Positions 1-7,999 of a stretch of 7,999 bases of DNA are shown one piece after another. A program made the translations under genes and the position numbers. Source of the stretch: a virus (taxonomy: Duplodnaviria; Heunggongvirae; Uroviricota; Caudoviricetes); the IMG/VR virus record IMGVR_UViG_2684622669_000018, positions 1 through 7,999 of that record. One strand, given 5' to 3'. Numbering within the stretch: position 1 is the stretch's first letter; every line of letters starts with the position of its first letter. Below the pieces are notes generated by a model. It worked only from the letters and a program-made list of their open reading frames with translations, did not search any database and was not told where the DNA came from.

Positions 1-1074
1 TCATTTGTTGATTTCAATTTTGTCCCATTCTCTCCCTCGGCTGTCCCTATACCGCGCCGCCATTGAATCTGATTTATGCCCGAGAAGACGTTGAGCAAAC
101 TTATCGCCAATCTGATTCCGGTATAGCCTCGCCGACAGGCTACGCAGTTCATGGAATGTTGGCGGGTCTCCATCAAATGAGAGTCCAGATGCATTTCTCG
201 CCTTTGTAAAATACTTAGATACTGTTTTCGGGGAAAGCGGTTCGTGATGCGTTGATGCAATTATTGTTTCACTGCCGCTGGTCTCCCTGCATTTCTGTAG
301 TGTATCAGCCAATGAAATATTGAGCGCGTCAATCGTTAGCGTCAGCGGAATGGCGAGCTTAGCCCCTGTTTTACCCTGTTCAATGTGAAGATGGTTGTCG
401 TTTATGTCTGACCATTTCATTTTGCACAAATCGCCGACTCTCTGACCTGTAACGACGGCCAAATCCATCGCAAGCCTCAGCCAGATTGGGAGAGGTTCGG
501 CTGCATGGTGAATTGCGACATACTCATTAGCTGTCAGCCTTGAGCGCCTTACTTCTGACTTTGCTGTGCGGGTTGCTGTTACCGGATTCGTAGCCACATG
601 CCCCTCGGCTATTGCCTCACGAAAAACGTCAACAAGGGTTGACCTGATTAATTTTGCGGAAGCCGCTTTACCTTCTGCTACGTAGGTGTTTAGCATTGCT
701 GCCACCTCTTTCGTTGATATGTCTGCGAGCGGTTTGTCCGGCAATTTTCTTCGGATTGCCCTGATTTTGCTGGCGTAGTCGAGTAGAGTTTTCGGCCTGA
801 TACCCCTCTCGCTGAGGATTGTTTCATATCGGTCAAGCCACGCATGAAGAGTGATTGCGTCAGCGCCTTTAATTCTGTCTATCAGTGACTCACGCCTGTT
901 CCCGGATAGCAACTCAATATTGGCCTGTATAGCTTCAGTGATTGCTATACGTCTGTCTCGGCCTAATCCGAACTCTTTACCCGTCCTTGGGTCCCTGTAG
1001 CAGTAATATCCATTGTTTCTTATATAAAGATTAGGGGGTAAATCCCGGCGCTCATGACTTCGCCTTCTTCCCAT
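1..1074 (-). CDS. int: Tyrosine integrase, lambda Int-like (357 aa, complete)
   Basis: ATG at 1074..1072, TGA at 3..1. N-terminus MGRRRSHERRDLPPNLYIRNNGYYCYRDPRTGKEFGLGRDRRIAITEAIQANIEL matches lambda Int as I recall it; C-terminal HELRSLSARLY ... LLGHKSD ... RY fits the tyrosine-recombinase catalytic signature. The 5' end overlaps the xis 3' end by 23 nt, as in lambda. Confidence 0.95.
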   Translation of the reverse strand: MGRRRSHERRDLPPNLYIRNNGYYCYRDPRTGKEFGLGRDRRIAITEAIQANIELLSGNRRESLIDRIKGADAITLHAWLDRYETILSERGIRPKTLLDYASKIRAIRRKLPDKPLADISTKEVAAMLNTYVAEGKAASAKLIRSTLVDVFREAIAEGHVATNPVTATRTAKSEVRRSRLTANEYVAIHHAAEPLPIWLRLAMDLAVVTGQRVGDLCKMKWSDINDNHLHIEQGKTGAKLAIPLTLTIDALNISLADTLQKCRETSGSETIIASTHHEPLSPKTVSKYFTKARNASGLSFDGDPPTFHELRSLSARLYRNQIGDKFAQRLLGHKSDSMAARYRDSRGREWDKIEINK

Positions 1075-1270
1075 TTCTGATCCTCTTCAAAAGGCTACCT
1101 GTTACTGGTCGATTTAAGTCAACCTTTACCGCTGATTCGTGGAACAGATACTCTCTTCCATCCTTAACCGGAGGAGGGAATATCCTGCACTCGCGTACCC
1201 ATCGACGAACTGTTTCAAGGCTTCTTGGGCGTCGCTGGCGTGCGTTCCACTCCTGAAGTGTCAAGTACAT
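1052..1270 (-). CDS. xis: Excisionase, lambda Xis-like (72 aa)
   Basis: ATG at 1270..1268, TGA at 1054..1052. MYLTLQEWNARQRRPRSLETVRRWVRECRIFPPPVKDGREYLFHESAVKVDLNRPVTG is near-identical to lambda Xis as recalled; the gene sits directly upstream of and overlapping int. Confidence 0.92.
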   Translation of the reverse strand: MYLTLQEWNARQRRPRSLETVRRWVRECRIFPPPVKDGREYLFHESAVKVDLNRPVTGSLLKRIRNGKKAKS

Positions 1271-1294
1271 CGCAAAGTCTCCGCAATTACACGC

Positions 1295-1317
1295 AAGAAA
1301 AGCCGCATTGATGCGGC
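1295..1317 (-). terminator. Candidate intrinsic terminator or attenuator between the 114-aa gene and xis
   Basis: Plus strand gccgca-ttga-tgcggc (1302..1317) forms a 6-bp GC-rich stem with a 4-nt loop. On the minus-strand transcript it is followed by UUUUCUU (plus 1295..1301). A second weaker hairpin, gcctca/tgaggc, lies at 1352..1370. Confidence 0.3.
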
Positions 1318-1375
1318 AATGGTAGGTCTGGATATCTTGAGAAATGAACAGGCCTCATTGAGTGTGAGGCTGTGG

Positions 1376-1720
1376 TTAGTCCTTGCGTAGCTCGCTAATT
1401 CTTCTGTAAGTCTCTGGTGCTTTGTTTCCGTGTATCTTCATTTCAGACTTCAACAGAGCGACGAGGGAATCCCATTCGTTGAGGATGCCTTTGAATGCCG
1501 GAACGCGCTTTGCAACCTTGTCGAATGAATCTCTGATTTCTGGAATCTGCTCAACAAGTGCAACGCATCGCCGGAAGTCTGCTGCGTCATGTGGAGCGCC
1601 GAAGTGATGACCATAGATATTCTTTTTCAGTCCACATGCGATTGAGGCAAGAGTTGCGCTACTGATGCCAACATCGCCAGTCGATTGCCATTTCAAAACC
1701 TTCATAGCCAAATCTGACAT
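1376..1720 (-). CDS. Hypothetical protein (114 aa), function unknown
   Basis: ATG at 1720..1718 preceded by GGAGA with 6-nt spacing; TAA at 1378..1376. It lies in the lambda ea8.5/ea22 position next to xis, but I recognise no family. Confidence 0.6.
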   Translation of the reverse strand: MSDLAMKVLKWQSTGDVGISSATLASIACGLKKNIYGHHFGAPHDAADFRRCVALVEQIPEIRDSFDKVAKRVPAFKGILNEWDSLVALLKSEMKIHGNKAPETYRRISELRKD

Positions 1721-1758
1721 TTCTTGTCTCCATAAAACAAAACCCGCCGTAGCGAGTT

Positions 1759-1791
1759 CAGATAAAAGAAATCCCCGCGAGTGCGAGGATT
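1759..1791 (-). terminator. Candidate internal intrinsic terminator or attenuator
   Basis: Imperfect hairpin aaatccccgcgagtgcgaggatt (1769..1791; about 9 bp with one mismatch and one G-U). On the minus-strand transcript it is followed by a U-rich tract (plus cagataaaagaa, 1759..1770). It lies between the 98-aa and 114-aa genes. Confidence 0.25.
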
Positions 1792-1838
1792 GTTATTCAT
1801 TGCCGATATTCACCTTTATCGCGAACACCTTTACCGGT

Positions 1839-2135
1839 TTATCTCCTTTGCATGGCGCGTAATTTTTTCAGATGGTTCTCCTGCTCTGTTTCAGCCAGAA
1901 TTTGTCGGTATTCCTGGTGATCGATCCGTTCAAACAGTTCATTAAAATCGTTTATTTTTACCGACTGTGTTCGCCCATCCATTCTTCTGTACAACACAGT
2001 GTTGTTTATGCAGCGAAGAATTTTTATCGGGTAGCCGGCGCTATCGGTGTATATCTGACCACGTTGAATCAGAGCGAACATTCCTTTATCCCCAGCGGAA
2101 AAGCGAATACAGAATAAATGCCACCGCGATTGCAA
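1839..2135 (-). CDS. Hypothetical protein (98 aa from TTG, or 80 aa from ATG at 2081)
   Basis: The ORF-track start at 2135..2133 is TTG, immediately abutting AGGAG (0-nt spacer). The first in-frame ATG is at 2081..2079 with a weak AAAGGA directly adjacent. TAA at 1841..1839. Start uncertain; no family recognised. Confidence 0.45.
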   Translation of the reverse strand: MQSRWHLFCIRFSAGDKGMFALIQRGQIYTDSAGYPIKILRCINNTVLYRRMDGRTQSVKINDFNELFERIDHQEYRQILAETEQENHLKKLRAMQRR

Positions 2136-2155
2136 CTCCTACAGCGGTGAATGCT

Positions 2156-2818
2156 TCAGGCCAATTCATCATTCACTCCCTGCGGCGGTTCTGGTAGCAG
2201 CATCCAGTACAAGGCGTTCCCTAACCACGATAAAGTGCCGTCGCTCAACTCCACGTATTCCCCTTGTACCTGTCCTGCCATATACTCGCCGTGCTTTGAA
2301 TAAATTAAAACCCAATCGTCTTGAGCGGGAATTCGCTCACTACAGCTTATCCAACCATCCGGAGTTACCGGAGAGTTGCCACCGGGAATATTTTCCGGAA
2401 TATTTTGTTGTGCGTTTTGTGGTTGTTCGGATTTACCCTGAAGCATGGCGGCGCGGCAGGCGTTCCAGCCAGCTGTTCGCCCAAGCGCGTAAACTTCAGA
2501 TGGATCAAGATAATCAATGTCATGCCCGTCCTCATCGTCGTTCTCAGGTAATGCAGCAGGTACTACTGGTACTGGAGGGGCGGCATAAACAGGAATAACG
2601 TCCGATTGATCTTTATTGCTTTCATCCGTCAAAGCCCAGAATAATTTTCCGGCCGGATGTTTGAAAATATAAGCAACTGGCTCTGCTTCCAGTGATGCCA
2701 GTGCAATTCGTGCCAGTTCTTCCGCTTCTTCTGCTGGCAGTACAACGTTGCTACCAGGTCCGTATGTTTCGCGCCACTGCTTGATTGTCAGCAGTCGCTC
2801 TTTGGTAATAGTGGTCAT
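2156..2818 (-). CDS. DUF551 domain-containing phage protein (220 aa)
   Basis: ATG at 2818..2816 preceded by AGGAA with 7-nt spacing; TGA at 2158..2156. The C-terminus PDGWISCSERIP...WVLIY...LSWLGNALYWMLLPEPP fits the DUF551 pattern common in lambdoid early regions. The central region is Pro/Asp/Glu-rich and looks like a low-complexity linker. Its ATG overlaps the upstream gene's TGA (ATGA at 2818..2815). Confidence 0.8.
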   Translation of the reverse strand: MTTITKERLLTIKQWRETYGPGSNVVLPAEEAEELARIALASLEAEPVAYIFKHPAGKLFWALTDESNKDQSDVIPVYAAPPVPVVPAALPENDDEDGHDIDYLDPSEVYALGRTAGWNACRAAMLQGKSEQPQNAQQNIPENIPGGNSPVTPDGWISCSERIPAQDDWVLIYSKHGEYMAGQVQGEYVELSDGTLSWLGNALYWMLLPEPPQGVNDELA

Positions 2819-3330
2819 GCCGCGTTTCCTTCTTTCTTATTAACAATTACACCGTCATATATTTCATTAAGGTGCCCTCTCAACTCCATGCGCCTTAATG
2901 CAGATAACATGTAATCGCATTCAACCTGCTTATTTCCAGTAAATGGCTTATCGTCAGGATTACCCCAACAGCAATTACCCTTGGGCCACCCATGCACTTT
3001 CCGTACTCTTCCGTTAACAACGTGAAGTAATCCCCAGCCAGGTGGTAAATCCTCAACTGAAATAATTCCCGGCTCACTAATAAAGAATCGCCAGTCGCCC
3101 ATTCCAAGAGATGGATTTTTACGAAAACGCTTTTTTCTATCTGCCAACAAGTCAGCACGAGAACACTTCGCCTCTATCAGGCATGATGCTGAATTTCTGA
3201 ATCCCATAGCATCTGGCTGTTCTCCGGTACTGGTTACAGCTATAAAGCGGTCATGAAAACAAACCTTGAACCCGTTGCGCTTAAGGAACTTATACGCAAT
3301 CTGACAGAGTTCGCGGTGTGTTAACGCCAT
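2815..3330 (-). CDS. Putative PD-(D/E)xK-motif nuclease-like protein (171 aa; possibly MmcB-like), Cys-rich C-terminus
   Basis: The ORF-track ORF 2815..3492 is a 5' over-extension that overlaps the Ea22-like gene. The internal ATG at 3330..3328 is preceded by AGGAGAG with 4-nt spacing and lies 1 nt after the Ea22-like TGA (3334..3332). The motif GEQPDAMGF...SCLIEAKCSRADLL resembles the PD...ExK nuclease signature; the C-terminus carries a GNCCWGNPDD...ECD cysteine cluster. Confidence 0.6.
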   Translation of the reverse strand: MALTHRELCQIAYKFLKRNGFKVCFHDRFIAVTSTGEQPDAMGFRNSASCLIEAKCSRADLLADRKKRFRKNPSLGMGDWRFFISEPGIISVEDLPPGWGLLHVVNGRVRKVHGWPKGNCCWGNPDDKPFTGNKQVECDYMLSALRRMELRGHLNEIYDGVIVNKKEGNAA

Positions 3331-3331
3331 A

Positions 3332-3991
3332 TCACTCTCCTTTGATGCGAATGTCAGCGGCGCGCTCGGCTTCACTTTGTTCCCAAAACCACTTGTGAAG
3401 CTCCATGAGCTTTTCGTCAATCGGTGCATATTTGCGATTAAAGTAGGCCTGAGCATCTTTCTCAGATTCGTCCGGCAATTCGCCTGGGCCAAACAGTGTG
3501 TTATAAATCCATGCCAGTCCGCTTTTAGCGTCGCCAGTTGCCTGCCATTCGATAATCGCAGCCTGCATGACCAGAATGTTTTTCCCGATTAACAGGTCCA
3601 GCTCTTTGAACCGGTTGCGGATGTATGCATTCTCGCTTTGTAATTTTGCGTTGCGCTTCTCTGCGGCTTCCAGCTCAACACGCAGCTTCCCTACAGTTAG
3701 CGCAATTTCCTCGTTCTCCTGATCGCGGCGTTTTATGTATTGCTGGTTTCTTTCCCGTTCATCCAGCAGTGCCTGCACTACTTCAGGGTTGAAAGCTGCG
3801 ATATAACGAGCATTAGCAGCAGCTTTTTTCTGTCCATCAAACCCAGGCCATTTGATAACATCTTCGCATCGTTTATCACCTGGCGTATGCACCGCATACG
3901 TACCAGTACCCGGCGAAATAAATGCGACCCATTCGCCCTGTGTTGCCTGTTTTGCTAACTCACGCAGTGCCTGATAGTCAATCTTGCTCAC
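3332..3991 (-). CDS. Ead/Ea22-like family phage protein (219 aa from GTG start)
   Basis: The ORF-track start at 4183 is a GTG with no SD, inside the Lar-like gene. GTG at 3991..3989 is preceded by AAGGAGG with 6-nt spacing. The N-terminal domain (IDYQALRELAKQATQGEWVAF...ARYIAAFNPEVVQALLDERE) and the coiled-coil middle resemble the Ead/Ea22 family as recalled. TGA at 3334..3332. Confidence 0.65.
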   Translation of the reverse strand: MSKIDYQALRELAKQATQGEWVAFISPGTGTYAVHTPGDKRCEDVIKWPGFDGQKKAAANARYIAAFNPEVVQALLDERERNQQYIKRRDQENEEIALTVGKLRVELEAAEKRNAKLQSENAYIRNRFKELDLLIGKNILVMQAAIIEWQATGDAKSGLAWIYNTLFGPGELPDESEKDAQAYFNRKYAPIDEKLMELHKWFWEQSEAERAADIRIKGE

Positions 3992-4211
3992 TGTTTGCCT
4001 CCTTTGCTCGCTGATTCCACTCTGCTCTAACCTCTGAATAAAAAATCGCGCAGTCATTTCCAGGCGCTGCATATTTGCTACCAGATTGAGCGCGACACGT
4101 ACCGCATCGAACGAAATAGAATCGACCGCCAGAGCCATATTCAGGGTGATCTGCTTCGCTGGCAACGTGCGCTGCACCGCCACAGAATGGACATGGTAGT
4201 AGGTTGCTCAT
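3978..4211 (-). CDS. lar: Lar-family restriction-alleviation protein (zinc ribbon, 77 aa)
   Basis: ATG at 4211..4209 preceded by GGGAG; TGA at 3980..3978. Protein [12 protein letters not shown]...RCGTC carries the CPFCG plus CxxC four-cysteine ribbon typical of Lar/RalR-like proteins. The start overlaps the stop of the 186-aa gene as ATGA (4211..4208). The longer ORF-track version (from 4244) is an in-frame 5' extension. Confidence 0.75.
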   Translation of the reverse strand: MSNLLPCPFCGGAAHVASEADHPEYGSGGRFYFVRCGTCRAQSGSKYAAPGNDCAIFYSEVRAEWNQRAKEANSEQD

Positions 4212-4768
4212 GAATGCACTCCCTTGTGAAGCTGTTCCGCACAATGCAGCAGGGCGTCAGTCGCCTCTTTCACCGTAACGCAGTCGCCATCGTCCAGCCC
4301 GGACACCGACGCGTGCTTAACGAACGCCGCGTAAAGGTCATCAAACGCCTTAGCCCGGACTTCAGCCAGGAAAGCATCGGTGGCTGGGGTGTCTGATTGC
4401 ATAGACTTTGCGCGATAATCATTCCACCCTCTTGCATATATGGGATTAACTTGCACCCCATCTTTTACGCAATATGCCTGCCCTCCACGGTTGATAACCT
4501 TGATTTCGTCCATAGCGCCAGACTTCAGCCCCGCATTCTCCGCCGCCAGCGCCGAAAACTTCTCGTGTGCCAACTTAACAGCCGCATCAGCCTGCTTAAT
4601 TGACTCAATCGCTTTCTGGTGGTCTTCGGACAGAGCCGAAATCTTGGCCTCCGCTTCAGCAAATTTACGCACCAGATATTCAGCGTTTGTTTCGTTAACC
4701 TTTAAATCTCGTGGGATGCATTGACCTTTCAGAAAACCATCCATCTCAATTAGTGACATTTGTTTCAT
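4208..4768 (-). CDS. Hypothetical protein (186 aa), predicted coiled-coil N-terminal half
   Basis: ATG at 4768..4766 (GGAG about 9 nt upstream); TGA at 4210..4208. The N-terminal half is Ala/Glu/Lys-rich and heptad-like. No family recognised. Translationally coupled to the Lar-like gene. Confidence 0.65.
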
Positions 4769-4945
4769 TTCTTCCCACTCCGCAACATCGCATTCAGATA
4801 TTTGTTTTGATTCACTGATGGAAAAGAATTTCTCTTAAGCAATTCCTCTCTCGATGGCATTGGCTTTACGCGTTAGAGAATAATCATTTCTGCCGGAAGA
4901 ATGCCGGGATTGTATGCAAGTCCTCTCATGGTAAATTCCTCTTTG

Positions 4946-5260
4946 TTAATTTATTCGTATGCCTGCTCTTTCTTCATCGAGTTTTTTTAGCTTGTATCGC
5001 ATAGCTCTTACTGAATAAATTGAGCGGCAGGTTGCAATTGCTATTTCTTCCGCGGTGAACTTACCGAAAAGTGATACTTCGGCTCTTGTCCATCGTCTTC
5101 CACGAAGTCGGCTAACAATGTCAGCGCCAATCCTTGTTGCTTTCGCCATAACTGCTTTTTCAGTCCTTTCCAGTTTTTCAGCGATAACTTCAACTGGCAT
5201 TGTCGCCGCTACTTCGCGCAAGAAATCGACTTCCCATTTCTCCCATGGAGTCTTTTTCAT
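4946..5260 (-). CDS. Hypothetical protein with two Myb/SANT-like repeats (104 aa); possible DNA-binding protein
   Basis: ATG at 5260..5258, 11 nt after the Gp157 TAA, with no clear SD (probable coupling). Internal duplication: WEKWEVDFLREV...EVIAEKLERTEKAV and WTRAEVSLFGKFTAEEIAIATCRSIYSVRAM. TAA at 4948..4946. Confidence 0.55.
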   Translation of the reverse strand: MKKTPWEKWEVDFLREVAATMPVEVIAEKLERTEKAVMAKATRIGADIVSRLRGRRWTRAEVSLFGKFTAEEIAIATCRSIYSVRAMRYKLKKLDEERAGIRIN

Positions 5261-5271
5261 AGGCGATACCG

Positions 5272-5754
5272 TTATTTGATAAGAAGTGAAGGTTTCCCAA
5301 CTTTGAGTTGAGCGCCGGGGATATTTATTCCTGCTTTTAGTTGGTGTTTGATTGCCAACTTGTCGGCTTTAATTGTTGTTTCAAACTCAACGTATTCAGG
5401 AGGAAGGGCGCTTGAGTCGATGATTTCTACAGTTTCTGACGGTTTGCGGATTGTTACCTGGTGAATACCTGCTCGCATCTTTTTCTTGCCAACCATTTCA
5501 AGCGATGACGCTATATATGATTTGATGCTGTCAATCTTATTTTGAATTACTGCGGCTCGTTCATTCAGTGACTTTGCCTCTTCCTTGAGGCGTTCAGCAT
5601 AACCAGATTCATTTTTAATAATGGCGAGAAGTTGCTCTATTTTATCGGTAAATTCTCCTTCCATGCCTTCTATTGTGTCAGCAATCATCTCTGGTTCTAA
5701 ATCTGAATCCATCAATTTTGCGTATTCATTGGCTATTTCATATAGTTTGCTCAC
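5272..5754 (-). CDS. Siphovirus Gp157-family protein (about 160 aa)
   Basis: (V)SKLYEIANEYAKLMD...IADTIEGMEGEF...EMVGKKKMRAGIHQVTIRK...VEIIDSSALPPEY fits the Gp157 family usually found beside phage annealing proteins. The ORF-track start is TTG at 5760; GTG at 5754 has GGAGG 6 nt upstream and is preferred. The 5' end overlaps the recT 3' end. TAA at 5274..5272. Confidence 0.8.
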   Translation of the reverse strand: MSKLYEIANEYAKLMDSDLEPEMIADTIEGMEGEFTDKIEQLLAIIKNESGYAERLKEEAKSLNERAAVIQNKIDSIKSYIASSLEMVGKKKMRAGIHQVTIRKPSETVEIIDSSALPPEYVEFETTIKADKLAIKHQLKAGINIPGAQLKVGKPSLLIK

Positions 5755-6649
5755 TGGCAACCTCCAGTTTCGCTTTGCATTCCATGTAAATGGCTTGTAC
5801 GTTCTGCTGCAATTTCATTCCAGATGTCAGGCGATATGCTTCTGCAAAATATCGCTTCAAATCATCCATGTTTTCAGCCTGAGCCATTTCATCACAAAGA
5901 AGTTGTGCTTTTTCCATAATTTCCTGCTGTCGTTTCCGTTCATCTTCGCGGATATCTTCCTCTGATTTGTGCGGCATAACTGGTTCAGTCCACACACCTT
6001 CTTCTTCGTTTAGTACGTGAATAGCACTATCAAGACGTGATGCCTTAGGCCAATACTTGCTTGCACGCTTTACGACCGTCTTTCGCGCCATCTCATTCCA
6101 GTGATTTACCCATGGTCCTTTATCGCTGAATGCTGCCTTGCTTGTTTTCCTTACAGCCTCAATTTCAGCCAGACTCATCTCTTCCGTTAGATAATCACCT
6201 GCTGGCGTCTTAACTGTGCAGTAAACGCCAACAATATCACCACGATCACCGAAGGCGTTGTATTTATGGGTTGGTGCTTTATCAAGCCCGTTTGACTCAT
6301 AGGTATCGTTAGCATGAACAAGTTTTGCCTGACCCCATGAGATAACACCAGACTCCATTGCAATATGGAGCAATCCCATATAACTGATATCAAGGCACAC
6401 CATGCCGTCGCGCGGAACCAGATAAGCCAGTTTGCTAGCCGGGTTTAAGGTGATACCGATCGCCGCAACATTGATGATGGCGTTCTGTGCGCTGGTTGGA
6501 TTTGCCAGTGCTGTTTTAGCCAGGTAATCATTTTTCTGGAAATACTGAATTGCAAACTGGCTTTCCTTAGCCCATGTCACCGTCTGTTCAGTCAATGCTC
6601 CGCAGAATAACTGCTCTTGCTGTTTAACGAATTCAACGATATTGCTCAT
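5738..6649 (-). CDS. recT: RecT-family single-strand annealing protein (303 aa)
   Basis: ATG at 6649..6647 preceded by GGAG with 7-nt spacing; TGA at 5740..5738. The conserved block GPWVNHWNEMARKTVVKRASKYWP matches the RecT/Redbeta-superfamily core as recalled from Rac RecT (GPWVTHWEEMAKKT...). The start overlaps the stop of the upstream 103-aa gene as ATGA. Confidence 0.88.
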   Translation of the reverse strand: MSNIVEFVKQQEQLFCGALTEQTVTWAKESQFAIQYFQKNDYLAKTALANPTSAQNAIINVAAIGITLNPASKLAYLVPRDGMVCLDISYMGLLHIAMESGVISWGQAKLVHANDTYESNGLDKAPTHKYNAFGDRGDIVGVYCTVKTPAGDYLTEEMSLAEIEAVRKTSKAAFSDKGPWVNHWNEMARKTVVKRASKYWPKASRLDSAIHVLNEEEGVWTEPVMPHKSEEDIREDERKRQQEIMEKAQLLCDEMAQAENMDDLKRYFAEAYRLTSGMKLQQNVQAIYMECKAKLEVASEQTI

Positions 6650-6957
6650 GCTGCTTCTCCATAAACGTGTCTGCGTTTGAATATTGCGAAGGCATATTCA
6701 GCCTTAACTCTTTCGGTTATTGCATCCCAGAACCATTCAGCGGCTTTTTCCTGATAGTTACAGTCATAATCTTCCAGCCAGTCGATAGCTTCCTTAGTGT
6801 GTTCATCTGGTTTATATGAGCGAAGCATTTCGCTTATTGGGTCGCAACGTTTGCAGAGGCGATCAACTTCACTGTTGATTCGTTCGTAATCTTCATCAGT
6901 AAAACTTGCGATTATTTGCGATATTTCACGCTCATCTTTCAGAGTCAGAATCATCAT
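6646..6957 (-). CDS. Hypothetical acidic protein (103 aa)
   Basis: ATGATG at 6957..6952 preceded by AGGAG; TGA at 6648..6646. About 24 Asp/Glu against about 15 Lys/Arg; two CxxC-like spacings (C..C at RLCKRC). It occupies the position of lambda gam, immediately upstream of the annealing protein. Confidence 0.6.
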   Translation of the reverse strand: MMILTLKDEREISQIIASFTDEDYERINSEVDRLCKRCDPISEMLRSYKPDEHTKEAIDWLEDYDCNYQEKAAEWFWDAITERVKAEYAFAIFKRRHVYGEAA

Positions 6958-7042
6958 CTTTCTCCTGTTCTTTGTGCTGATTGAGCATTTCTTTCATCTG
7001 ACGAATAAATTCTTCGTCTGACCAGTTATCTGTAAAACTCAT
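6932..7042 (-). CDS. Possible small ORF (36 aa, acidic C-terminus); speculative
   Basis: ATG at 7042..7040 overlaps the kil-like TGA (7041..7039) as ATGA. Translates to MSFTDNWSDEEFIRQMKEMLNQHKEQEKDDDSDSER. The SD is weak (AGGAA abutting the ATG). It overlaps the first 26 nt of the 103-aa gene. Not in the ORF track because of its size. Confidence 0.25.
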   Translation of the reverse strand: MSFTDNWSDEEFIRQMKEMLNQHKEQEKDDDSDSER

Positions 7043-7191
7043 TTCCTGCGATACCACGGAAGGTTGATAGCTGATTTCATCGCTTTATTTGCTTCAAGCC
7101 ACATTTTTGAATCACCAATAAATCTGGCTATTACTGCTTTGTTCTGTGCTGCACGAAGCATCTGGTGATTGATGGCTATTTCATTGCGCAT
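7039..7191 (-). CDS. kil: Kil-like host-killing / FtsZ-inhibitor small protein (50 aa)
   Basis: ATG at 7191..7189 preceded by GGAGG with 4-nt spacing. Translates to MRNEIAINHQMLRAAQNKAVIARFIGDSKMWLEANKAMKSAINLPWYRRK. The FIGD-x-KM core and its position overlapping the cIII 3' end by 16 nt mirror lambda kil as recalled. Missed by the ORF track (under 60 aa). Confidence 0.5.
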   Translation of the reverse strand: MRNEIAINHQMLRAAQNKAVIARFIGDSKMWLEANKAMKSAINLPWYRRK

Positions 7192-7310
7192 AACGCCTCC
7201 AGTTGTTTCTTTGCTGCTCTGATTAATTGTTTAACTCGGCGTGATAATTCAGATTCGTGCGGGTAGAAAGCGGACATGACGCCGCTACCCGCGAGCTGAA
7301 AGTGCATCAT
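7176..7310 (-). CDS. cIII: CIII-like small protein (44 aa), putative FtsH inhibitor
   Basis: ATGATG at 7310..7305 preceded by AAGGAG with 6-nt spacing; TAG at 7178..7176. MMHFQLAGSGVMSAFYPHESELSRRVKQLIRAAKKQLEAL resembles lambda CIII (M..AIAG....PSESLLERITRKL...) as recalled, and lies immediately upstream of kil. The ORF-track ORF 7176..7415 is a 5' over-extension. Confidence 0.5.
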   Translation of the reverse strand: MMHFQLAGSGVMSAFYPHESELSRRVKQLIRAAKKQLEALCAMK

Positions 7311-7372
7311 GGGTAACTCCTTATATTTGATTGCATAACGAAAACGCCTCGAGTGAAGCGTTATTGGTATGC

Positions 7373-7400
7373 ATATAAAAAAGCCCTCACACTGGAGGGC
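7373..7400 (-). terminator. Intrinsic terminator (tL1-like position, upstream of cIII)
   Basis: On the minus-strand transcript: GCCCUC-cagugu-GAGGGC (plus 7383..7400) followed directly by UUUUUUAUAU (plus 7373..7382). Perfect 6-bp stem. Confidence 0.5.
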
Positions 7401-7462
7401 AAAGAAGATTTCCAATAATCAGAACAAGTCGGCTCCTGTTTAGTTACGAGCGACATTGCTCC

Positions 7463-7490
7463 GTGTATTCACTCGTTGGAATGAATACAC
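7463..7490. repeat. Perfect 9-bp inverted repeat with 10-nt spacer
   Basis: gtgtattca (7463..7471) and tgaatacac (7482..7490) are exact reverse complements, with spacer ctcgttggaa. No U-run follows on either strand, so this is not a terminator. Candidate protein-binding site or RNA stem-loop. Confidence 0.4.
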
Positions 7491-7517
7491 AGTGCAGTGT
7501 TTATTCTGTTGTTTGTG

Positions 7518-7545
7518 CTAAAAATAAAGGCCGACTATGCGGCCT
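7518..7545 (-). terminator. Intrinsic terminator immediately after the membrane-protein gene
   Basis: Plus strand aggccg-actatg-cggcct (7528..7545) begins 5 nt after the TGA at 7552..7550. On the minus-strand transcript the hairpin is followed by UUAUUUUUAG (plus 7518..7527). Confidence 0.5.
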
Positions 7546-7549
7546 AAAA

Positions 7550-7999
7550 TCACTTAACCAATGATGCTGCATATTCGATAAGGTAAAGCTTTGGAGCCAG
7601 CCAAATTTTCAACCAAGTCATATTGGTTACTGCACTAATAATAAAAATCCCCCACAGAATCAAAACTCCAACCAATGGAATGATAAGAAGATTAATATCA
7701 CCTTTGCTATCCCAAACCATTGTCGGCCTGTATTTGGGATTTCCCTTCTCCCATGAATATCCTTCATCACCGATTTTACCTGTCTCAACTCTTTGGCACT
7801 GCTTCTTCATAAACCAGAAAACCAGTGGGATTGTTAGAATGGCTATTAATGTTTTAATCAGACTGTCAACCATATTCCATATTAGCAACTGATGAACAAC
7901 ATCAGGAATCTGTGCCTGGCTAAATGAAACAGCCGCGTCTATTCCATCACTGGCTTTTTGCAGTAGTTCTACGAGAATCTTGTTTGCTTGTTCTTCCAT
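7550..7999 (-). CDS. Small membrane protein with two predicted TM helices (149 aa or longer; N-terminus may lie beyond the window); candidate superinfection-exclusion or moron product
   Basis: The ORF runs to the window edge; the ATG at 7999..7997 may or may not be the true start. Hydrophobic segments LIKTLIAILTIPLVFWFM and LLIIPLVGVLILWGIFIISAV. Visibly AT-rich compared with the rest of the window. Followed by its own terminator. Confidence 0.65.
   Translation of the reverse strand: MEEQANKILVELLQKASDGIDAAVSFSQAQIPDVVHQLLIWNMVDSLIKTLIAILTIPLVFWFMKKQCQRVETGKIGDEGYSWEKGNPKYRPTMVWDSKGDINLLIIPLVGVLILWGIFIISAVTNMTWLKIWLAPKLYLIEYAASLVK

Follow-up and report, generated by a model that had tools for sequence, protein, structure and literature searches.

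Recombination (Rec) modules of lambdoid phages occur with and without a nuclease gene. In lambda Red (exo-bet-gam) and Rac RecET the module includes a 5'-3' exonuclease gene (for Exo and RecE, respectively), whereas P22 (arf-erf-abc1-abc2) has no phage exonuclease and represents a class in which an anti-RecBCD protein is combined with an annealing protein (PMC12315714). In an analysis of Rec modules that covered 325 lambdoid phages, Zheng, Casjens, Davidson, Amundsen and Smith (Genome Res 2025, PMC12315714) counted 84 of 246 modules without a nuclease gene; the module of phage HK140 has a RecT-type annealing protein and a MuGam-type anti-RecBCD protein, with neither a nuclease nor a single-stranded DNA-binding protein (SSB). 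Misson et al. (PLoS Pathog 2023, PMC9928086) named the corresponding block of phage Gally, recT-gam-abc1, 'the recombination module' and found recT induced 3.6-fold in macrophages, along with the rest of the left operon. Here we examine the Rec module of IMG/VR virus record IMGVR_UViG_2684622669_000018, of which positions 1 to 7,999 were analysed (hereafter the window). At 4946-6649 it encodes RecT, a Gp157-family protein and a protein of 104 amino acids (aa), and a preliminary description of the sequence had remarked that no exonuclease gene adjoins them. The reading that we favour, with a probability of about 0.75, is that this is a Rec module of the HK140/mEpX1/Gally type, belonging to the class of which P22 is the prototype, in which annealing and anti-RecBCD proteins come without a nuclease or SSB, and that a nuclease-like gene of 171 aa further downstream is separate from it.

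A constant, translationally coupled block with no exonuclease gene in its operon

Nearly all of the early-left (pL) operon of a lambdoid E. coli prophage lies in the 7999-base window, which reaches to within one gene of N at one end and to int at the other; all its genes are on the minus strand. Gene families were assigned with Pfam, PHROGs and NCBIfam, which upheld both the coordinates and the gene calls of the preliminary description. In the order of transcription, the module consists of an acidic 103-aa open reading frame (ORF; 6646-6957), recT (5738-6649, 303 aa), the Gp157 gene (5272-5754, 160 aa) and the gene for the basic 104-aa protein (4946-5260). The stop codon of the 103-aa ORF overlaps the start of recT (ATGA), and the GTG start of Gp157 overlaps the final 17 nucleotides (nt) of recT. 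This GTG at 5754 is most likely the true start, rather than the TTG at 5760 given in the ORF list, because it follows a GGAGG by 6 nt and yields 160 aa as in nearly all homologues. We collected 80 IMG/VR loci carrying a RecT of the window type at 98% identity or more, which are near-identical alleles, and the order 103-aa ORF-RecT-Gp157-104-aa gene was kept in every one of them. The four genes are therefore directly observed to be a fixed, translationally coupled block. Among 5426 complete E. coli genomes, 302 carry the same DNA, which is also found in phages Gally, HK140, mEpX1, Kapi1, Louie and Dewey.

Exonuclease genes were sought inside the block, along the operon and beyond the window. 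None of the window ORFs matched an exonuclease family in Pfam, PHROGs or NCBIfam, and no nuclease or SSB family was matched in the block or in the ten larger window ORFs scanned. Lambda Exo, RecE, Bet, Erf, Abc1 and Abc2 were found in none of the 80 RecT loci (Exo and RecE were queried by tblastn). When 70 representative same-strand ORFs of at least 150 aa from these loci were scanned against Pfam via one alignment, no YqaJ-type gene was among the 25 most frequent of the 66 matched families, so that a rare single-locus case is possible. In the E. coli TB354 prophage, the closest relative past the right end of the window, N adjoins the 149-aa ORF and is followed by small hypothetical ORFs and the repressor; in Gally the order is a small hypothetical gene, N and the repressor, and HK140 presents the same picture. 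The annotated full operons of Gally, HK140 and TB354 contain no exonuclease between N and int. This gene order indicates that no exonuclease lies just outside the window, and the downstream side lies within it; an exonuclease gene immediately beyond the window, which would have undone the original observation, is thus not present in these relatives, and the observation stands. The window also contains no Chi site (GCTGGTGG) on either strand, in agreement with the scarcity of Chi reported for lambdoid phages with an anti-RecBCD function (PMC12315714).

The block is preceded on its upstream side by a 354-aa coiled-coil ORF in six of the RecT loci (L006, 8254-9315, and five similar ones). From a reading of its sequence this ORF looks DUF1351-like, and DUF1351 has been reported next to annealing proteins in Firmicutes phages (PMC8093625).

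Comparison with described recombination modules

RecT, Gp157 and the 104-aa protein are 99.0, 97.5 and 98.1% identical to their HK140 counterparts. The Rec modules of HK140, mEpX1 and Gally have the same genes in the same order and the same early-left position as the window, whose proteins are 94-99% identical to those of HK140, and the flanking mosaic ea genes alone differ. The features that define the nuclease-less class of Zheng et al., an anti-RecBCD protein plus a single-strand annealing protein (SAP) with no nuclease or SSB, are found here as a position after cIII and kil, a RecT and a Gp157 protein that is 97.5% identical to the HK140 protein classed by these authors as MuGam and whose anti-RecBCD role is predicted. 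The module is already known and is ordinary for HK140-like lambdoid E. coli phages.

The resemblance to P22 extends to the lack of a phage exonuclease, the position directly after kil, the presence of an Abc1-family gene and the class of anti-RecBCD plus annealing protein (PMC12315714). The module differs in having RecT instead of Erf and a predicted Gam/Gp157-type protein instead of the RecC-binding Abc2, and no homologue of Arf or Abc2 is present. With lambda Red and Rac RecET the module shares the cIII-kil-module position and a recombination-promoting annealing protein, and Rac RecT is a detectable homologue of the window RecT at about 30% identity, but the exonuclease of those systems is missing. 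Set against lambda, Gp157 occupies the slot of exo and the 103-aa ORF that of gam. Mu Gam has a probable remote sequence similarity to Gp157 and is of comparable size, and each of the two adjoins a member of phrog_323, which is gp9 in Mu and the 104-aa gene in the window. Unlike in Mu, however, the family is PF05565 rather than PF07352, the gene order is reversed, an annealing protein stands beside the pair, and for Gp157 the binding of DNA ends is a prediction.

RecT and Gp157

The RecT protein matches Pfam RecT over residues 31-217 (E 3.7e-32; 111.9 bits against a cutoff of 24), TIGR00616 (82.4 bits against 52.65) and phrog_148 (E 6.8e-92). It did not reach the equivalog model for Rac RecT, NF007351 (101.8 against 296). 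Judged by these profiles, it is a member of the RecT family and a predicted single-strand annealing protein, and it is not an orthologue of Rac RecT since the NF007351 cutoff was not reached. Zheng et al. 2025 (PMC12315714) call this type of RecT 'SAP-4'.

Gp157 matches Pfam Sipho_Gp157 (PF05565) along the entire profile (positions 1-162 of 162; E 1.4e-37; 129.6 bits against 28.6) and phrog_253, which is labelled 'Mu Gam-like end protection' (E 1.3e-53). An AlphaFold2 model (predicted local distance difference test score, pLDDT, 86; predicted template modelling score 0.48) has a short helix, a helix of 67 residues (23-89) and a small C-terminal beta domain. A profile built from the Gp157 alignment recovered 13,029 representative relatives at E<=0.001, and a deep alignment of 144 members contained no nearly invariant Asp, Glu or His; because of this, Gp157 is unlikely to be an enzyme. 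The deep Gp157 profile was aligned by hhalign with a shallow Mu Gam profile over 100 collinear columns (E 5.8e-4, probability 29%). A hidden Markov model (HMM) of Mu Gam, run with hmmsearch against members of the Gp157 family, gave collinear alignments over Gam positions 43-159, through the beta domain. Among the 144 diverse members, 33 matched Pfam Phage_Mu_Gam (PF07352), with a best E of 6.1e-7, which makes it their third most frequent Pfam match. The window protein itself had no Phage_Mu_Gam match at E<=0.1, and when the ten members that scored best with the Mu Gam HMM were rescanned with Pfam, none reached E<=0.01 for this family. A fold like that of the solved Gam structure (2p2u) was not recovered for Gp157: fold searches of the PDB returned helical noise only, and sequence searches against PDB chains gave chance-level matches only. 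A literature search found no experiment on any Gp157 protein. Taken together, these results moderately support a remote relationship between Gp157 and Mu Gam, and Gp157 is probably a DNA-end-binding, anti-RecBCD protein of the Mu Gam kind.

Gp157 homologues were also surveyed in 41 species-representative genomes. Where Gp157 is about 57-81% identical to the window protein, RecT adjoins it, and Gp157-RecT pairs are kept down to about 57-60% identity across enterobacterial genera. At 30-35% identity Gp157 adjoins phrog_2489 proteins of 600-760 aa, and other divergent Gp157 genes adjoin Sak4-type annealing proteins. Divergent Gp157 genes are thus always found beside an annealing protein, be it RecT, a large, weakly Rad52-like protein or Sak4, and such an association had already been reported for Firmicutes phages (PMC8093625).

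The phrog_2489 cases (L108-L125 and L129; for example L110 3812-5980, L122 3791-6001 and L124 3716-5974) come from prophages of Serratia, Proteus, Xenorhabdus, Morganella, Pantoea and E. whittamii, and Gp157 follows the phrog_2489 gene. The RecE-like PHROG matches of these large proteins cover the non-nuclease middle only, and their annotation as 'exonuclease' looks doubtful. Their C-terminal ~240 aa match phrog_7838, and one of them has a weak Rad52_Rad22 match (E 6.6e-4). They resemble the nuclease-less 'RecE-2' proteins described in PMC12315714. Three short contigs of 2-5 kb (L092, L096 and L104), labelled Actinomycetes metagenome-assembled genome, Micromonospora and Streptomyces, encode a Gp157 ~70% identical to the E. 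coli one, and L096 and L104 have the adjoining 103-aa ORF and RecT genes as well; these contigs are probably enterobacterial contamination of those assemblies.

The proteins flanking RecT and Gp157

The 104-aa protein matches phrog_11492 (E 1.1e-23) and phrog_323 (E 1.3e-20), and phrog_323 is also matched by P22 Abc1 (1.3e-23) and Mu gp9 (5.2e-29). On these profile matches the protein belongs to the P22 Abc1/Mu gp9 family. BLAST detected its similarity to Mu gp9 (E 5e-5); no pairwise BLAST similarity was found to P22 Abc1, the name under which the gene is annotated in Gally, so the link to Abc1 is at the level of the PHROG profile. In an Enterobacter prophage (L100), a true P22 Abc1 homologue occupies the slot of the 104-aa gene. 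Abc1 helps P22 recombination and is non-essential (PMC12315714). The protein had been described as having two Myb/SANT-like repeats. No Pfam Myb/SANT family was matched, and BLAST of the two halves did not detect an internal repeat. Each half, however, aligns to one and the same N-terminal stretch of Mu gp9, which suggests a build of two repeats resembling helix-turn-helix units, so that this part of the earlier reading is retained and the Myb/SANT assignment is not. In Mu, gp9 and gam adjoin (L087, 5482-5781 and 5801-6325), which mirrors the Gp157/Abc1-like pair in reversed order. This suggests that Gp157 or Mu Gam and a phrog_323 gene form a conserved functional pair.

The 103-aa ORF matches phrog_3486 (E 3.7e-57) and encodes an acidic protein with an isoelectric point (pI) of 4.68. 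It lies directly upstream of recT in all 80 IMG/VR loci, and it has no detectable similarity to Gam, P22 Arf or any Pfam family. In three prophages of Citrobacter and Yokenella, its slot between kil and recT is filled by lambda Gam (Pfam Gam 2.8e-51; L089 4816-5109, L093 4813-5106 and L095 4813-5106), with RecT-Gp157 kept. Each of these three modules combines two distinct putative anti-RecBCD genes, again without a nuclease. The slot can therefore hold an anti-RecBCD gene, and Gp157 is therefore not simply redundant with such a gene. Since the 103-aa ORF is coupled to recT, is present in 80 of 80 loci and sits in the slot of lambda Gam in relatives and of Arf in P22, it may be regarded as a candidate anti-RecBCD protein or RecT cofactor, a tentative assignment to which we give a fairly low probability.

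The downstream PD-(D/E)xK gene is not consistently linked to RecT

The preliminary description had pointed to a PD-(D/E)xK-like product about 2.4 kb downstream of the module in the same operon. This gene is real: it encodes 171 aa (2815-3330), a length shared by most homologues, on the same strand as the module. The program-made ORF list over-extends several genes, this one among them, as a 225-aa ORF at 2815-3492 whose actual start is the ATG at 3330. The assignment to the PD-(D/E)xK superfamily holds as well, as the protein has a confident structure model (pLDDT 82) with an alpha-beta core and the conserved D...(D/E)xK motif on adjacent strands, and the residues E37/D40...E53-x-K55 are invariant across homologues.

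The proposal that this product is YqaJ- or lambda-Exo-like was not borne out. It has no match to YqaJ/Exonuc_VIII or to any other Pfam or NCBIfam family, a search against PDB sequences gave chance-level matches only, and lambda Exo and RecE are not its nearest structural neighbours. It has an MmcB-like PD-(D/E)xK fold, and not a lambda-Exo/YqaJ-like one. The closest system is MmcB/SPO1766 (PDB 3dnx), which we take to be a member of the MmcB family (DUF1052); the 171-aa protein differs from it in lacking a Pfam or NCBIfam match and in being phage-borne in enterobacteria. MmcB has been described as a PD-(D/E)xK endonuclease with a part in the tolerance of crosslinking agents (PMC9578287). The 171-aa protein probably cleaves damaged or branched DNA as an endonuclease. 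Gally carries a 171-aa gene labelled 'EaE', a name that BLAST did not support for the window protein, which is unrelated to both P22 EaE and the Gally 'EaE'.

Only 4 of the 80 RecT loci had the gene; at least 5 kb of downstream flank was available in 44 of the 80. A second sample comprised 80 loci with the 171-aa gene at 99% identity or more, likewise near-identical alleles, in which Rec genes were found with a set of queries. RecT-Gp157 occurred in five of these loci, lambda Bet/Exo/Gam in three, Erf/Abc2 in three, Abc2 with an undetected annealing protein in nine, RecT with a lambda-Exo homologue in two and RecE in one, and in 54 no Rec gene was detected by the queries used. There is thus no consistent genomic linkage to an annealing-protein gene. 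Because it accompanies RecT in so few loci and occurs beside other complete Rec modules, the 171-aa gene is an independently shuffled accessory gene of the mosaic ea region and not the partner of RecT.

Other genes of the operon and its mosaic boundary

Upstream of the block in the window lie a membrane-like ORF of 149 aa (7550-7999), a cIII-like ORF (about 7176-7310) and, just after it in transcription order, the kil-like ORF (about 7039-7191) that precedes the 103-aa ORF. Between the 104-aa and 171-aa genes are an EaE-like, a Lar-like and an Ea22-like ORF, in this order; a DUF551 protein and two small ORFs lie between the 171-aa gene and xis, which is followed by a lambda-type integrase (1-1074). 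All of them are on the minus strand. The window was not present end to end in any searched genome, the best match covering 75%, and its set of ea genes (Lar-like, Ea22-like, EaE-like, MmcB-like and DUF551) is a combination that was unmatched beyond 75% of the window length in the searched records. The Abc1-like gene is followed by a gap of 177 nt (4769-4945, minus strand) that contains an 18-codon ORF only; in HK140 and TB354 a DUF2737 gene fills this place. The gap marks the mosaic boundary at which the conserved block ends downstream.

In the program-made list, the Ea22-like ORF (3332-4183) overlaps the Lar-like ORF (3978-4244) by ~200 nt, and for that reason its true start is probably further downstream. 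In its C-terminal part (residues 172-277), the Ea22-like protein (3332-4183, minus strand) is matched by the model 'DpdH' of PADLOC (E 4.7e-37); either a prophage Ea22-type domain is included in this model, or the Ea22-like protein and Dpd defence islands have the domain in common. The PADLOC scan covered ten proteins of the window, and neither the module nor the 171-aa protein matched a defence system in it.

How the module may work, and other readings of it

If the module acts as its class suggests, Gp157 dimers would bind the ends of double-stranded DNA and shut out RecBCD, perhaps along with further exonucleases, by analogy with Mu Gam, dimers of which cap DNA ends and keep RecBCD off (PMC12315714, PMC12407980). 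RecT would then anneal single-stranded DNA not made by the phage itself. Helicases and nucleases of the host, for example RecQ/RecJ, might supply this DNA, or it might become accessible at replication forks and rolling-circle tails. The preliminary description had left two possibilities side by side, a displaced nuclease partner and reliance on host nucleases. Reliance on host functions fits the data and is the better reading, whereas the displaced partner is unsupported: the 171-aa protein does have the PD-(D/E)xK fold with its invariant E/D...ExK motif, no other gene of the window is nuclease-like, and its gene shares strand and operon with recT, but its MmcB-like character, its rarity near RecT and its occurrence beside lambda Red, Erf/Abc2 and RecE modules make it very improbable that it is a 5'-3' exonuclease of RecT moved 2.4 kb downstream. 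We give still less credit to the idea that the module is a decaying, non-working remnant left after loss of an exonuclease. It could draw on Gally, in which a mutant with the recT-gam-abc1 block swapped for a kanamycin cassette still gave infectious, lysogenising particles (PMC9928086), so that the block is dispensable for those steps. The four ORFs are nevertheless intact and translationally coupled, the block is kept in 80 of 80 loci and in free-living phages, Gp157-RecT pairs persist to the 57-60% identity level across enterobacterial genera, and the block is transcribed on induction (PMC9928086).

The remaining alternatives concern what the partners of RecT do. Gp157 might be another kind of accessory, such as a loader or mediator or a replication-linked factor, and its Gam label an artefact of the coiled-coil helix. 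This would account for the helical noise in the fold searches, for the lack of a direct Phage_Mu_Gam match of the window protein and for the co-occurrence of Gp157 with lambda Gam; moreover, Gp157, DUF1351, DUF2483 and Mu Gam share one genomic position by annealing proteins with no proven common function (PMC8093625). However, the Gp157-Gam alignments are collinear over about 100-115 positions and run beyond the helix into the C-terminal beta domain, with shared RxPSV and (D/N)K(x)AIL-like motifs, Phage_Mu_Gam ranks third among the Pfam matches of the family, and the MuGam/gam label was given by two independent groups (PMC9928086, PMC12315714). We therefore hold a non-Gam role to be unlikely. 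It is also rather improbable that the module redirects host RecBCD in the manner of P22 Abc2, with the 103-aa or the Abc1-like protein modifying RecBCD for resection and Gp157 as an auxiliary. The layout parallels P22 kil-arf-erf-abc1-abc2, the 104-aa protein shares phrog_323 with Abc1 and is replaced by a true Abc1 homologue in the Enterobacter prophage, the 103-aa ORF is acidic and in the slot of lambda Gam in relatives, and the action of Abc2 on RecC is established (PMC12315714, PMC9836394). Against this, no Abc2 homologue is found in the window or the 80 RecT loci, Abc1 aids recombination without being essential (PMC12315714), and the 103-aa ORF resembles neither Gam, Arf nor any Pfam family detectably.

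The module carries little weight as a discovery, since a nuclease-less module with a MuGam-type partner was already catalogued for HK140 and the Gally block has been named and deleted. For annotation, the downstream PD-(D/E)xK gene should not be recorded as the exonuclease of RecT, and it is on remote homology that Gp157 proteins are labelled 'Mu Gam-like'. If the tentative role of the 103-aa ORF is true, the module would function as a system of four proteins, with RecT flanked by two different proteins for end protection or the control of nucleases. Gp157 accompanies several families of annealing proteins in many bacteria, which makes it a very common phage accessory protein of possible use in recombineering.

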